Shown here piece by piece: positions 19,890-26,958 of a stretch of 64,000 bases of DNA; the stretch's first letter is position 1, and each line of letters begins with the position of its first letter. The notes below the pieces were generated by a model, which was given only the letters and a program-made list of their open reading frames with translations, was not told the origin of the DNA and searched no databases. Source of the DNA: an uncultured Candidatus Rokubacteria bacterium (GTDB taxonomy: Bacteria > JAUVQV01 > DATDCY01); the NCBI GenBank assembly GCA_963699775.1, contig CAVOVE010000015.1:687588-751587 (forward strand), written 5' to 3'. A program made the translations under genes and the position numbers.

Positions 19890-20664
19890 GCCGCGCCGGT
19901 CTCACCCGCATCGGTTCCGGGAGGCGGGCCTGTCTGACAGCAGGTGCCCCCGCGCGCGCCAGGCCCTCGCGCAGGGCGTGCTCCACGGTGCGCAGCACCT
20001 TGACCCGGGCGTGCAGCTTGTCGTTCGCCTCGACGATGACCCAGGGCGCCTGGTGCGTGCTCGTCTTGAGGATCATCTCGTCCGCGGCCTGCAGGTGGTC
20101 CTCCCACTTGCCGCGGTTGCGCCAGTCCTCCTCGGTCAGCTTCCAGGACTTGTAGTGAATGCGCTCGCGCTCGCGAAAGCGCTTGAGCTGCTCCTCCTTG
20201 GAGATGTGGATCCAGAGCTTGATCACCGTCGTGCCGTGCGCCACGAGCTGGCGCTCGAACTGGTTGATCTCGGAGTAGGCGCGCGCCCAGGCCTCGGCGG
20301 TGCAGTAGCCCTCGACGCGCTCGACGAGCACGCGGCCGTACCAGGAGCGGTCGAAGATCGCGATCTGGCCGTCTTCCGGGAGCCGGCGCCAGAAGCGGTA
20401 GAGGTAGTGCCGCTCGCGATCGTCGCCGTGCGGCGCGCCGATCGGCCAGACGACGTAGCCGCGCGGGTCGAGGTTCTGGGTCAGCCGCTTGATGGCGCCG
20501 CCCTTGCCGGCCGCGTCCGGTCCCTCGAAGACGATCACGACCGGGAGGCGGTTCAGGTAGACCTGGTACCCGAGCAGGTGCAGGCGGTTCTGCAGCGCCT
20601 TGATCTCGCGCTCGTAGTCGGCGCGCTTGATCTTCAGCGAGAGATCGAGCCGGTCAAAGACCAC
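19890..20664 (-). CDS. ppk2: polyphosphate kinase 2 (PPK2, single-domain)
   Basis: VVIVFEGPDAAGKGGAIKRL Walker A, YLYRFWRRLPEDGQIAIFDRSWYGRVLVERVEG, lid WKLTEEDW; in the assembled frame it reads into the tolC signal peptide without a stop. Confidence 0.8.
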
Positions 20665-21507
20665 GGTGCGTCACCTTGGCCTTGGCGAACTGCGGTTTCG
20701 CGCGGCGGCGCCGCGCCCGGGCGGCCCGGGGCGCAGCCTTGGGCTTCGGCTGCGGCGGGGCCGCGGCGCCGGCTTTGACCCGCGGCGGCGGCACGTGTGC
20801 GGCGAGGCGATCCTCGAAGGCCCGGATGATCTCCTCGAACACCTTGATCCGGGTGTGATAGCGGTCGGTGGCCTCGACGATGACCCAGGGGGCGTGCGGG
20901 AAGTCGGTGCGGGCGAGCATCTCCTCCACCGCGACCGCGTAACGCGTCGTACTTCTTGTGCTGGGCCGCGTCCTCCCCGGCGACCTGCCAGGAGGTGAGC
21001 TTCGAGGCGAGCAGCTTCTTGAAGCGGCGGCTCTGCTCCTTCTTGCTGATCTGGAGCCAGAACTTGCGGATCAGCGTCCCCTCGGCGCCGAGCTTCGACT
21101 CGAACTCGACGATGTCCTGGTAGGCCTCTTTCCAGACGCTTTTCTTCACGAGTCTTGCCGACCCTGCCGATCAGCACGCGGCGATACCACGAGGTGTCGT
21201 AGATGACCGTCTGGCCGTAGGCCGGGATCTGCTGCCAGTAGCGCCACATCCAGGGGTAGCGCATCTCGGAGGAGCGCGGCGGCGAGATCGGCACGACGCG
21301 CACGCCGCGCGGGTCGAGCCGCTCGGTCAGGACGTTGATCGTCCCGCCCTTGCCGGCGGCCGCCCAGCCCTCGAAGACGATCATCGCGGGGATCTGGCGC
21401 TGGAAAGCGGCGTGAACGAGGTCGTAGAGCCGCTCCTGCAACTGGGCGATGCGGCGTTTGTAGACCGTCTTGGAGACAGTCAGACTCAGGTCGACTTTTT
21501 CGAGCAT
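20654..21507 (-). CDS. ppk2: second polyphosphate kinase 2 (tandem with the first; possibly a two-domain PPK2); 2-3 frame changes
   Basis: MIVFEGWAAAGKGGTINVLTERLDPRGVRVV, YPWMWRYWQQIPAYGQTVIYDTSWYRRVLIGRV in ORF 20671..21507; continuation KKSVWKEAYQDIVEFE..FWLQISKKEQ.. and C-terminus DFPHAPWVIVEATDRYHTRIKVFEEI in two other minus frames. Confidence 0.75.
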
Positions 21508-21613
21508 GGGCGAAATGTAGCACAGCGGGCACGCGGCAGGCTAGGCCTGACCGGAGGCTTCGTATACAATACCCGGGAACGTGCGATCTCTCCGGGCTCC
21601 CTGAGCCGGGCCT

Positions 21614-23884
21614 GTGAAAACAAATCCACCCCGGGAGGGGCAGATGGCGCTAGCGAGAGCAGGGAAAACAGCGGCCAGGAAACCTTGTCGCTCCGCGTCC
21701 AGGACGGCGGCGAAGAAGCCGGCGAAGGCCGCGGGGGCGCCGCCCTGCCCCGGCGGCCGGAGCCTGCTCGACCCGGCCCTCTACCTCAACCGCGAGCTGA
21801 CCTGGCTCGCCTTCAACAGCCGCGTGCTGCACGAGGCGGAGGACGAGCGCACGCCGCTGCTCGAGCGCGTGAAGTTCCTCGCGATCACCGCCGCGAACCT
21901 CGACGAGTTCTTCATGAAGCGCATCGGCGGGCTCAAGCAGCAGGTCGAGGCGGGAGTGCAGAAAGTCACCGTCGACGGCCGCACGCCCGCGCGCCAGATC
22001 CAGGAGTGCCACCAGGCCATCGTCGGCCTGCGCGTGCGCATGGAGCAGCTGGCCGTGCGCCTCGTGAAGCTGCTGCGCGCCGAGAAGATCGACCTGGTCG
22101 CACTACGACCAGCTCGCGAAGGAGGAGCAGGCCCAGGTCCGCGCCGAGTACGTGCGCTCGATCTACCCGCTGGTCACGCCCCAGTCGGTCGACCCCGCGC
22201 ACCCCTTCCCCTTCGTCTCGAACCTCTCGCTCAACCTGCTGGTGACCCTGCGCTACCCCGGGGACACCGAACTCTCGCTGGCGCGCGTCAAGGTCCCCGT
22301 CGGCGCCGGCGCGCGCCGCTTCCTGCGGGTCGGCGCGAAGGCAGCGCTTCGTGCCGCTCGAGGAGGTGCTCTGCCACAACCTCGACCTGCTCTTCCCCGG
22401 CATGGAGATCGTGCGCTGCGAGCTCTTCCGCGTGACCCGCAACGCGAACGCCGAGAAGAACGAGGAGAGCGCCGACGACCTGCTCGCCCTGATCGAATCC
22501 GAGCTGCAGGAGCGCCGGTTCGCCCCGATCGTGCGCCTCGAGGTGATCCCGGGCATGGAGCCGCTGCACCGCGGCCGGCTGGCCGCCGAACTCGACCTGG
22601 ACGAGGCGCAGGACGTCTTCGAGGTCGAGGGGATGTTCGCGCTGCGCGACCTGCACGAGATCGCCGGACTGCCGCGCCCGGAGCTCAAGGACGCGCCGCA
22701 CCACCCGATCGACCACCCGCTGCTGCAGACCGAGCGCAGCATCTTCCACGTGATCCGCGACGCCGGCTCGATCCTGCTCCAGCACCCCTACGAGGCCTTC
22801 GCCTCCTCGCTCGAGCGCTTTCTCAAGGAAGCCGCCGAGGACCCCAAGGTGCGCGCGATCAAGATGACGCTCTACCGCACCGCCAGCGAGAGCAGCATCC
22901 TCGAGCACCTGCTCGACCGCGGCCCGCAACGGCAAGCAGGTGGCGGTGGTCGTCGAGCTCAAGGCGCGCTTCGACGAGGAGGCCAACATCCGCCTGGCCA
23001 GCCGCATGGAGGAGGCCGGGATCCACGTCACCTACGGCGTCGTCGGCCTGAAGACCCACGCCAAGGTCACGCTCGTCGTGCGCCAGGACTACAACGGCCT
23101 GCAGCGCTACGTGCACGTCGGCACCGGCAACTACCACCCGGTGACCTCGCGCCTCTACGCCGACCTGGGGCTGCTGACCGCCGACGAGGCGATCGGCACC
23201 GACGCGACCGAGCTGTTCAACTACCTGACGACCGGCTTCACGCCCAAGCGCGTGTACCGCAAGCTGCTCGTGGCGCCCAAGAGCCTCAAGGCGGCGCTGC
23301 TCGAAAAAATCAGGCGCGAGATCCGCGCCCACGCGAAATCGGGCGGCGGCCTGATCCGCTTCAAGATGAACGGCCTCGAGGACGCCGAGATCGCCCGGGC
23401 CCTCTACGAGGCCTCGCGCGCCGGGGTCGTCGTCGACCTCATCGTGCGCGACACCTGCCGCGTGCGCCCCGGAATGCCGGGCCTCTCGGAGACGATCCGG
23501 GTGATCTCGATCGTCGGGCGCTTCCTCGAACACGCCCGCGTCTACTACTTCCGCAACGGCGGCGCCGAGGAGTACTACATCGGCTCCGCCGACGCGATGA
23601 AGCGCAACCTGGAATACCGCGTCGAGGTCCTCGCGCCGGTGGAGTCCCCGCCGCTGCGCGCCGAGCTCAAGGCGCTGCTCGACATCCAGTGGAGCGACCG
23701 CCGCAGCGCCTGGGAGATGCGCGCCGACGGCACCTACGTCCAGCGGCAACCGCCGGGCAAGCGGCGAGATGCGGAGCCCGGCTGCCAGGAGACGCTGATC
23801 CGGCTCGCGGACAAGCGGCTCAAGACCGCGACGCGGCTGCGCAAGCGCACCTCGCTGACGCCGGGCCGGCGGAACCTCCGCTAG
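21614..23884 (+). CDS. ppk1: polyphosphate kinase 1; at least three frame changes
   Basis: N-domain [48 protein letters not shown]; H-domain/PLD-like C1 in frames of ORFs 22152 and 22351; C2 domain [44 protein letters not shown] in ORF 22940..23884. Confidence 0.85.
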
Positions 23885-25945: not shown

Positions 25946-26032
25946 TGGGGGAAACATGAAATTTTTCAGCAACAATTGCGACAGCCGCCAGAATGTTCGC
26001 AGCCCCGGTGGTCTGCGGGCGAGGCGCCCGCG

Positions 26033-26465
26033 CCATGAAGGGCGTGCGCAAGCCGGACTCCTGGTACCGCCAGTCCGGGGTGATCGCCGTGCGCGTCAAG
26101 GACAAAGCGCCCCAGGTGCTGCTGGTGACCAGCAACGGCGGCAAGCGCTGGGTGATCCCGAAGGGCATCGTCGAGAAGGGCTACTCCCCCGGCGAGTTCC
26201 GCCGCCAAGGAGGCCTGGGAGGAGGCTGGTGTCACCGGGTGCATCTCGCGCCGGATGATCGGCCGCTACCGCTACGAGAAGTGGAACGGGGTCTGCACGG
26301 TGCTCGTCTACCGCCTGGACGTGGAACGAGATCCACCGCGACTGGCCCGAGGCGCACGTGCGCCGCAGGAAGTGGCTCGCGCCCGCGGCGGCGGCGGCTC
26401 GCGTCGGCGATCCGGTGCTCGCGCAGCTCATCCTCGACGCGTTCCCGAAGCGGTGGCGGACGTGA
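26033..26465 (+). CDS. NUDIX hydrolase; two frame changes
   Basis: SGVIAVRVKDKAPQVLLVTSNGGKRWVIPKGIVEKGYSP ... AWEEAGV-like segment ... RYRYEKWNGVCTVLVYRLDV spread over three plus frames. Confidence 0.6.
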
Positions 26466-26958
26466 AGCGCCTGATCGTCGTCCGGCACGCGAAAGCCGAA
26501 AAGTCCGCACCGCGCGGCGGGGATTTCGACCGCCCGCTCGCGCCGCGGGGCGAGGCGGACGCCGTCGAGATGGGCCGGCGGCTCGCCCGGCGCACGATGC
26601 ACCCGGACGCGATCGTCACCAGCCCGGCGGCGCGCACGCTCGCGACCGCCAAACTCATCGCCCGCGAACTGGACTTCCCCTGGGACGAGATCCGCACCGT
26701 CAAAGTCGGCCTACCTCGCCGAGGAGCGGACCTTGCTCGAACTGGTGCGCGGGCTGGACACCGGCGCGGAGTCGGCGCTGCTGGTCGGGCACAACCCCGG
26801 GGTCTCGGAACTGGCGCAGGCGCTGGTGCCGGGATTTCGAGCAGGACCTGCCGACCGGCGCGGTCGTCGAAATCGACCTGCCGGTCGACACCTGGGCCGG
26901 CGTCCGGCGCGGCGGCGGCAGCCTGCGCTCGTACGACTACCCGAAAAACAACCCGTAA
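26461..26958 (+). CDS. sixA: histidine phosphatase family protein (SixA-like phosphohistidine phosphatase)
   Basis: VKRLIVVRHAKAEK..DFDRPLAPRGEADAVEMGRRLA..IVTSPAARTLATA; C-terminal half in another frame (LLVGHNPGVSELAQALV). Confidence 0.7.
   Translation, partial: REAPDRRPARESRKVRTARRGFRPPARAAGRGGRRRDGPAARPAHDAPGRDRHQPGGAHARDRQTHRPRTGLPLGRDPHRQSRPTSPRSGPCSNWCAGWTPARSRRCWSGTTPGSRNWRRRWCRDFEQDLPTGAVVEIDLPVDTWAGVRRGGGSLRSYDYPKNNP

Follow-up and report, generated by a model that had tools for sequence, protein, structure and literature searches.

A predicted polyphosphate module of two divergent gene groups, conserved among Rokubacteria-type bacteria

Seven consecutive genes with predicted roles in polyphosphate (polyP) metabolism lie at positions 19902-26958 of a 64,000-nucleotide (nt) stretch of DNA from an uncultured Candidatus Rokubacteria bacterium (GenBank assembly GCA_963699775.1, contig CAVOVE010000015.1, positions 687,588 to 751,587; ~70% GC), referred to here as the window. 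Two genes of the polyphosphate kinase family PPK2 are encoded on the minus strand, and genes for PPK1, a CHAD protein, a CYTH protein, a NUDIX hydrolase and a SixA-like histidine phosphatase follow on the plus strand. The stretch surveyed, window positions 15500-30800, was analysed by listing of open reading frames (ORFs), Pfam scans and NCBIfam models, with proteins stitched across reading frames scanned as well. Frames were mapped with tblastn, using the intact orthologues of locus L001, an NCBI metagenome-assembled genome named Candidatus Methylomirabilia bacterium. The loci of relatives, here given L-numbers, come from CHAD- and NUDIX-seeded comparisons and include one from Candidatus Rokuibacteriota (L038). 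A preliminary description of this DNA had proposed a coherent polyphosphate-metabolism island. Pfam verified each of the six families it named (PF03976, PF02503, PF05235, PF01928, PF00293 and PF00300), in the order and orientation claimed, and synteny agrees. Neither outcome that had been named beforehand as refuting the island occurred: the domain searches bear out both CHAD and CYTH, and in close relatives the genes stay together. We consider it likely that these genes constitute a conserved polyphosphate module of a Methylomirabilota/Rokubacteria-type bacterium, organised as two divergent, translationally coupled gene groups; this judgement takes in the working model of the proteins presented below.

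The downstream gene of the PPK2 pair, PPK2a (19902-20664, minus strand), is predicted to encode a single-domain class II PPK2 that starts at a GTG codon (20664), with a TGA stop expected at 19904-19902. A 4-nt indel near 19922 places this stop out of frame in the window, and the ORF continues into a TolC-like gene. PPK2a matches Pfam PPK2 at 1.6e-82 (277 bits; PF03976 cutoff 22.3) and TIGR03708 at 369.2 bits (profile positions 261-492), and it is 95% identical to the L001 orthologue of 252 amino acids (aa). Compared with the two-domain enzyme PA3455, it scores 258 bits against the C-terminal domain and 122 bits against the N-terminal domain. Its catalytic motifs are intact (GPDAAGKGG, FDRSWYG and the lid EDWRNR), and the second of them carries the signature glycine of class II (PMC11968564 for the meaning of this residue).

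Upstream lies PPK2b (20654-21507, minus strand; ~283 aa), a single-domain PPK2 of class II lineage whose frame changes near 21150 and near 20946 in the window, which leaves it in three pieces. The three pieces each match Pfam PPK2 (5.7e-31, 2.2e-12 and 4.9e-07; 108, 47.5 and 30 bits; cutoff 22.3), and the stitched protein scores 258.2 bits on TIGR03708. Here the motifs are altered (GWAAAGKGG, YDTSWYR and EDAAQH) with the Walker B aspartate kept, such that PPK2a alone of the two presents the complete catalytic set. All orthologues in an alignment show the same or nearly the same PPK2b substitutions, a sign that purifying selection acts on the altered site. PPK2b is thus probably a non-catalytic partner, as judged from its motifs. 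A neighbour-joining tree places PPK2a with C-terminal domains; PPK2b falls beside the upstream genes of further tandem pairs (L045, L082), apart from true N-terminal domains.

The two genes overlap by 11 nt (20654-20664, GTGGTCTTTGA), with the TGA of PPK2b lying over the GTG of PPK2a, rather than being separated by the 10-nt gap described previously. All four distinct intact relatives (L001, L003, L006 and L007) share this overlap and have two separate gene calls, and a Shine-Dalgarno-like AAGGTGA (or AAGGAGA among these four loci and the window) is positioned 6 nt ahead of the PPK2a start. As a sequence pattern, this junction is that of classic translational coupling. A fused two-domain PPK2 of the PA3455 type had been suggested for the locus; this candidate was dropped, since the genes are separate in every intact relative. 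The pair had also been described as representing both PPK2 classes, whereas both copies match best to class II (TIGR03708 and PA3455). The TIGR03708 equivalog model expects at least 547.65 bits from a single polypeptide; the two proteins fall below this value individually and would exceed it together. From these comparisons the PPK2b-PPK2a pair looks like a split counterpart of the two-domain enzyme.

PPK1 (21644-23884, plus strand; ~746 aa) likely starts at the ATG at 21644, with a GTG at 21614 as the alternative, and occupies four frames with shifts near 22102, 22342 and 22914. All four Pfam domains (PP_kinase_N, PP_kinase, PP_kinase_C_1 and PP_kinase_C) are present, spread over the four pieces. 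The orthologue in L001 scores 731.7 bits on TIGR03705 (cutoff 465.85) and is 83-95% identical to the window across tblastn segments. Stitched PPK1 contains the motifs KTHAK and FLEHAR, which we take to carry its catalytic histidines. The N-terminus of PPK1 (21644-21780) is a basic, low-complexity extension rich in Ala, Pro, Lys and Arg (AGKTAARKP...), and the C-terminus of PPK2b (20654-20800) is a basic tail rich in Ala, Pro and Lys, PPQPKPKAAPRAARARRRRAKPQFAKAK, also of low complexity; each differs in length among orthologues. Given this composition, both extensions could bind polyphosphate or nucleic acid.

The intergenic region between PPK2b and PPK1 (21508-21643) measures 106-136 bp depending on the start codon used, in agreement with the shared region of about 100 bp from which PPK1 had been described as diverging. 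Alignment with L001, L003 and L006 reveals a block, AAATGTAGCACAG, kept directly upstream of the PPK2b start (21508-21560), and a second element in the region, TATACAAT, is common to the window, L001 and L003. These two could be candidate promoter or operator sequences.

The CHAD gene (23895-25472, plus strand; ~530 aa) begins with an ATG 10 nt past the PPK1 stop. The preliminary description assigned the family correctly and placed the start at ~24294; the true start is further upstream, with indels near 23986, 24015, 24076 and 24232-24242 splitting the N-terminal ~200 aa over frames. The CHAD domain matches Pfam at 6.8e-57 (193.5 bits; cutoff 25.6), and a profile search matched it to CtCHAD of Chlorobium (3E0S, 6QV7) at ~1e-81 (1.6e-81). 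An AlphaFold2 (AF2) model of the protein (pLDDT 89) shows a beta-rich domain at residues 1-200. In Foldseek the CHAD part aligned with 6QVA (TMt 0.93) and has the fold of two four-helix bundles, and the N-terminal part aligned with YgiF, thiamine triphosphatase (ThTPase) and CYTH cyclases (TMt 0.45-0.57). This N-terminal domain gave no match in Pfam (E <=10), NCBIfam or a PDB profile search, and the ExExK motif was found in none of 21 homologues of the CHAD protein. The Foldseek matches, together with the absence of both ExExK and a Pfam CYTH match, point to an architecture like that of YgiF in which the tunnel domain is probably non-catalytic. On the strength of the structural model, the N-terminal domain is probably a degenerate, non-catalytic fold of the triphosphate tunnel metalloenzyme (TTM; CYTH-like) type. 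CtCHAD has been crystallised with polyphosphate, and CHAD domains bind the polymer (PMC6537752); by homology to CtCHAD, the large TTM-CHAD protein is probably a polyphosphate-binding phosin.

A separate CYTH protein, itself a triphosphate tunnel metalloenzyme, is encoded at 25482-25959 (plus strand; ~158 aa); its frame shifts once, near 25868, and 1 nt is deleted at its stop codon. It opens with MAKEIERKFLV, which bears out the EIERKFLV start reported earlier, and its Pfam CYTH matches are at 4.8e-15 and 7.7e-15 (56.3 bits; cutoff 23.2). The canonical ExExK motif is present as EIERK at residues 4-8, and the protein's nearest relatives among solved structures are 2FBL, which is NE1496 of Nitrosomonas europaea, and 3TYP (1e-20 to 2e-20). 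In relatives the CHAD and CYTH genes overlap by 8 nt. With ExExK gone from the CHAD-fused tunnel domain in all 21 homologues, catalysis appears to have been handed to this separate CYTH gene.

The NUDIX hydrolase gene (26035-26465, plus strand; 142 aa) encodes a protein of Ddp1/DIPP type and is divided among three frames, with shifts near 26191 and 26327. Its unstitched ORF had no Pfam match, and the stitched protein matches at 7.4e-11 (42.6 bits; cutoff 21.1). Among solved structures it is closest to yeast Ddp1 and human DIPP1-3 (5e-11 to 1e-8). In orthologues the NUDIX box reads G-IVEEG-Y-SPARSAA-KEAWEEAGV, which keeps the REUXEEXGU core of the canonical GX5EX7REUXEEXGU apart from a Lys at the Arg position. 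The SixA-like histidine phosphatase of branch 1 (26462-26958, plus strand; 164 aa) has a GTG start and also spans three frames (shifts near 26706 and 26829). It matches Pfam His_Phos_1 at 1.2e-11 (45 bits; cutoff 21.7) and contains the motifs RHA and GHNP; of the solved structures, 2RFL, a putative SixA from Agrobacterium (2e-8), and the C-terminal domain of 3FJY, a MutT1 from Bifidobacterium, come closest. The two genes overlap by the four nucleotides GTGA (26462-26465), as had been noted, and do so in relatives too.

Every Methylomirabilota/Rokubacteria-type relative with a contig long enough to show the arrangement has the seven-gene block. It is intact in L001, L003/L004, L006, L007 and L095, the last of which holds all seven genes. 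Contigs bearing CHAD orthologues at 85%, 82%, 70%, 60% and 61% identity all carry the series PPK1-CHAD-CYTH-NUDIX-phosphatase, and the divergent PPK2 pair is present wherever the contigs of relatives extend that far. Partial blocks in L002, L005, L038, L109 and 16 more short contigs are consistent as far as those contigs reach. In a NUDIX-seeded metagenome scan, all 18 of the 18 high-identity contigs kept every neighbour within reach. The flanks vary: an efflux operon borders the block in the window, L001 and L003, and ABC transporter genes or others are found there in L006 and L007. L007 also has a gene for a tetratricopeptide repeat (TPR) protein inserted between the PPK2 pair and PPK1. Because the block recurs while its flanking genes change, the arrangement is not a product of chance.

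In other, uncultivated lineages the same families occur in fused form. In L114, PPK1, CHAD, a ParA-like gene and CYTH are followed by a 327-aa NUDIX-His_Phos_1 fusion and then by a two-domain PPK2 of 493 aa. A NUDIX-phosphatase fusion adjoins CHAD, CYTH or PPK1 in L116, L111, L136 and L110; in L111, L114 and L116 the fused domains form one ORF of 325-327 aa that is homologous to the window pair. A two-domain PPK2 is adjacent to CHAD in L049 (Gemmatimonadota) and lies ~3 kb from it in L012. The gene order is rearranged in L106 and L107. By the Rosetta-stone principle, these fusions suggest that PPK2b and PPK2a act together, that NUDIX and phosphatase do likewise, and that both pairs are tied to the PPK1/CHAD/CYTH core.

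Frame breaks, left unmentioned in the preliminary description, run through the whole stretch. Within 19800-27000, the DNA of the window aligns with L001 at 89% identity with ~20 single-base indels, a density of about one per 350-400 bp; they are mostly 1-nt insertions relative to L001 and show no association with homopolymers. Mapping with tblastn gave two frame changes in PPK2b, three in PPK1, at least two in CHAD, one in CYTH, two in NUDIX and two in the phosphatase. Neighbouring genes are likewise split over frames by this mapping: clpX (27576-28804), a flavin reductase gene (26971-27562), an EmrA-like gene (17338-18487) and a TolC-like gene (18570-19836). The public protein for the locus, P0001, is a shortened CHAD form of 388 aa that is 100% identical and comes from a 1.46-Mb contig; its homologues have 514-535 aa. 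As P0001 is the shortened CHAD protein of this same locus and its relatives are longer, the errors reside in the deposited assembly. From these alignments, it is almost certain that the organism has intact genes and that the frame breaks come from single-base errors in that assembly. In practice, automatic annotation shortens or misses genes of this stretch owing to its indel load.

The same observations can be read in other ways, the most drastic being that the frameshifts are real, that most of the seven genes are pseudogenes and that the island is a functionless relic in this organism. With at least 13 frame changes inside the seven genes and a public gene call for CHAD in the shortened form, this reading has a basis, and yet we give it almost no credence. 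The density of frame changes is alike in clpX and in the flavin reductase, EmrA-like and TolC-like genes, and clpX is regarded as indispensable. Since clpX and the efflux genes are broken at a like density, the breaks reflect assembly error and not gene decay, and the pseudogene reading was dropped on this ground. Moreover, the pieces are 73-97% identical at the protein level to intact orthologues with no internal stops in the correct frames, and indels that are almost all single-base and mostly insertions are the signature of uncorrected long reads, here on a 1.46-Mb contig. A different kind of frame change, a programmed +1 frameshift at CUU UGA C, could produce PPK2b and PPK2a as one two-domain protein, giving a PA3455-type enzyme plus a free N-like subunit. 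CTT TGA C/G occurs at the junction in the window, L001, L003, L006 and L007, a heptamer as at the release factor 2 (prfB) site; a ribosome slipping by +1 on CUU would join the PPK2a frame precisely at GAC (Asp4), TTT codes for Phe despite the ~70% GC content, the tail of PPK2b, variable and of low complexity, is similar to a linker between domains, and fused two-domain forms occur in other lineages. The heptamer is, however, fully explained by the conserved N-terminus of PPK2a (M-V/I-F-D/E) together with the need for a stop codon. Frameshifting in prfB is stimulated by a Shine-Dalgarno spacing of 3 nt, while the Shine-Dalgarno-like element here stands ~11 nt before the CUU and 6 nt before the PPK2a start, a placement that fits re-initiation. 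Other tandem pairs, for example that of L045, show a short gap and no such site, and gene callers as well as published analyses count such pairs as separate genes. We therefore regard frameshifting as very improbable, and retain the reading of two intact, separately translated and coupled PPK2 genes.

A further question is whether the last two genes belong to the island at all. They might form a nucleotide-sanitation unit, a split version of MutT1 that converts 8-oxo-(d)GTP to 8-oxo-(d)GMP and merely travels with ppk1, in which case the island would comprise fewer than seven genes. The fused NUDIX-His_Phos_1 proteins of related clusters do have the MutT1 architecture (NF052459 is named 8-oxo-(d)GTP phosphatase MutT1, and 3FJY is a probable MutT1), and deletion of the nudix gene in the ppk operon of Streptomyces gave no obvious phenotype (PMC8003754). 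The window NUDIX, though, is closest to Ddp1/DIPP; NF052459, the MutT1 model, gives it 25.7 bits where the cutoff is 475, and 3FJY is not among the matches of the NUDIX at E <=0.01. Ddp1-type Nudix enzymes are themselves counted among polyphosphatases (PMC6537752). Genomic context argues in the same direction: the pair, or its fusion, adjoins CHAD, CYTH or PPK1 despite rearranged gene order in L011, L106, L111, L114, L116, L135 and L136, and a SixA-like gene divergently adjoins the CHAD gene in Methylococcales loci. A separate sanitation unit seems unlikely to us, and we keep NUDIX and phosphatase within a seven-gene polyphosphate module. In a literature search, no paper was found that joins MutT1, histidine phosphatase and polyphosphate kinase.

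Comparison with known systems shows that clusters of this kind are already known and that the locus is a fuller example, specific to its lineage. The arrangement had been called unusually complete, which overstates its novelty, as the Streptomyces operon, PPK2 pairs and CHAD polyphosphate clusters are already published. Overall, the island, the families, their order and the 4-nt overlap of the preliminary description stand, and its PPK2 spacing, PPK2 classes, CHAD start and degree of novelty are revised here. The operon ppk-pptA-SLI_4382 of Streptomyces lividans/coelicolor (PPK1, the CHAD phosin PptA and a NUDIX protein) was found experimentally to be co-transcribed and controlled by PhoR/PhoP, and genes for NUDIX, MutT and histidine phosphatases are reported to be frequent downstream of ppk (PMC8003754). 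The window resembles this operon in having PPK1, CHAD and then a 142-aa NUDIX on one strand, overlapping or tightly spaced. It differs in the stand-alone CYTH gene between CHAD and NUDIX, in the SixA-like phosphatase coupled to NUDIX, in the size of the CHAD protein (~530 aa with a degenerate TTM, compared with 388 aa) and in the added divergent class II PPK2 pair; furthermore, co-transcription here is a prediction. More generally, CHAD genes have been described as parts of polyphosphate gene clusters, CYTH-CHAD fusions are known, and Ddp1-type Nudix hydrolases were placed among eukaryotic polyphosphatases by Lorenzo-Orts et al. (PMC6537752). No paper describing the exact seven-gene arrangement, or polyphosphate genes in Rokubacteria, was found in our literature search.

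At the level of individual proteins, both window PPK2s match best to PA3455 of P. aeruginosa (3CZP; TIGR03708). As in that two-domain enzyme, one part (PPK2a) has all catalytic motifs and the upstream part (PPK2b) has altered ones, the state of the N-terminal domain of PA3455. Unlike PA3455, the window encodes two polypeptides, of which PPK2b keeps the Walker B aspartate and groups apart from true N-terminal domains. A closer parallel comes from Matsumoto et al. 2024, who described adjacent single-domain N-like and C-like class II PPK2 genes and proposed hetero-oligomers (PMC11968564); the window genes are likewise tandem, single-domain and on the same strand, the pattern read there as hetero-oligomeric. 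The CHAD protein shares with E. coli YgiF, a short-chain polyphosphatase (5A60), the order of a TTM fold followed by CHAD, but its TTM lacks ExExK and is not recognised by Pfam or NCBIfam. The small CYTH protein is like NE1496 (2FBL; ~1e-20), with ExExK present. The succession of NUDIX and branch-1 histidine phosphatase recalls actinobacterial MutT1 (NF052459, 3FJY), and the phosphatase matches the C-terminal domain of 3FJY; in contrast to MutT1, the window has two separate proteins and its NUDIX is not a MutT1 orthologue. The NUDIX protein is instead like Ddp1/DIPP, which it matches at 5e-11.

These comparisons are consistent with a working model in which PPK1 would build long-chain polyphosphate from ATP and the protein with degenerate TTM and CHAD domains would coat or bind the polymer as a phosin. 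PPK2a, as the catalytic subunit, and PPK2b, with its altered site, would form a hetero-oligomer equivalent to a split polyP:AMP phosphotransferase, converting AMP to ADP with polyphosphate. Tripolyphosphate and similarly short chains would be hydrolysed by the canonical CYTH protein. NUDIX, of Ddp1/DIPP type, and the coupled SixA-like phosphatase would act sequentially, with polyphosphate ends or internal bonds, or nucleoside and dinucleoside polyphosphates made by polyphosphate kinases, for example p4A and Ap5-6A, as likely substrates. Together, the three hydrolases would clear short phosphoanhydrides.

Several observations weigh against parts of this model. Of the two PA3455 domains, PPK2b resembles the C-terminal one (169 bits) more than the N-terminal one (129 bits), so that it is not a clean orthologue of the latter and may retain some activity. 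In a manual alignment, the first glutamate of the Nudix box (GX5E) appears to be replaced by Tyr. The NUDIX falls far short of the MutT1 model NF052459, and the phosphatase scores 47.5 bits on TIGR00249 sixA, below the cutoff of 74.5, which makes it SixA-like and not a demonstrated SixA. An exopolyphosphatase (Ppx/GppA) is not found in the cluster. A scan of the island for the sigma-70 consensus gave no sites; no Pho-box search was made, the motif not being known for the phylum. In 80 distant CHAD loci, mostly of Gammaproteobacteria, CHAD usually occurs without the other six genes.

The locus offers a clean natural experiment in which the same functions are split here and fused in other lineages, in support of the published hypothesis of heteromeric class II PPK2 (PMC11968564), and it connects a Ddp1-like NUDIX and a SixA-like phosphatase with bacterial polyphosphate handling. 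It also suggests that Rokubacteria-type bacteria of soil and sediment invest in a complete polyphosphate toolkit. A bolder proposal, offered only tentatively since we think it unlikely, is that the recurrent set of PPK1, degenerate-TTM CHAD, CYTH, Ddp1-like NUDIX, SixA-like phosphatase and class II PPK2 represents a widespread, uncharacterised machine for polyphosphate turnover, split in this lineage and fused elsewhere. Were this true, several features would be novel: NUDIX and histidine phosphatase would constitute either a bacterial endopolyphosphatase working in two steps or a system that clears nucleoside polyphosphates, and a pseudo-kinase PPK2 subunit would regulate the catalytic one or target it on the granule; possibly, the proportion of fused and free PPK2 subunits would be determined by the prfB-like CUU UGA C site.

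Other associations of CHAD genes emerged from the comparison of distant loci. A gene for a ParA/MinD-like ATPase (Pfam AAA_31/CbiA) lies directly downstream of CHAD, often overlapping it, in many Proteobacteria and others, and is absent from the lineage of the window. Examples are L008 (11554-12309), L009 (11584-12333), L010 (11582-12334), L114 (3230-3970) and L116 (8758-9498), with at least 27 further cases in the 70 loci examined among L011-L090. This ATPase could be a candidate positioning system for polyphosphate granules, and no paper on the CHAD-ParA/MinD-like pairing was found in the literature search. Separately, eight loci of Methylococcales methanotrophs (L031, L058, L064, L070, L071, L075, L076 and L077) have a SixA-like gene just upstream of CHAD in divergent orientation, where CHAD and a histidine phosphatase are again associated, independently of the island.

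The genes bordering the island complete the surveyed stretch. An efflux operon of MFS (EmrB-like), EmrA-like and TolC-like genes (15678-19878, minus strand) is located ~23 nt past the expected PPK2a stop; these genes were considered as part of the island and dropped as probably not belonging to it, since they are absent beside the block in L006 and L007. Two extra genes present in L001, for a 396-aa protein and a GNAT protein, had no tblastn match in the window. Downstream of the island is tig-clpP-clpX (27576-30742, minus strand), which is found nearby, at variable distance, in L001, L003, L005, L006 and L007.

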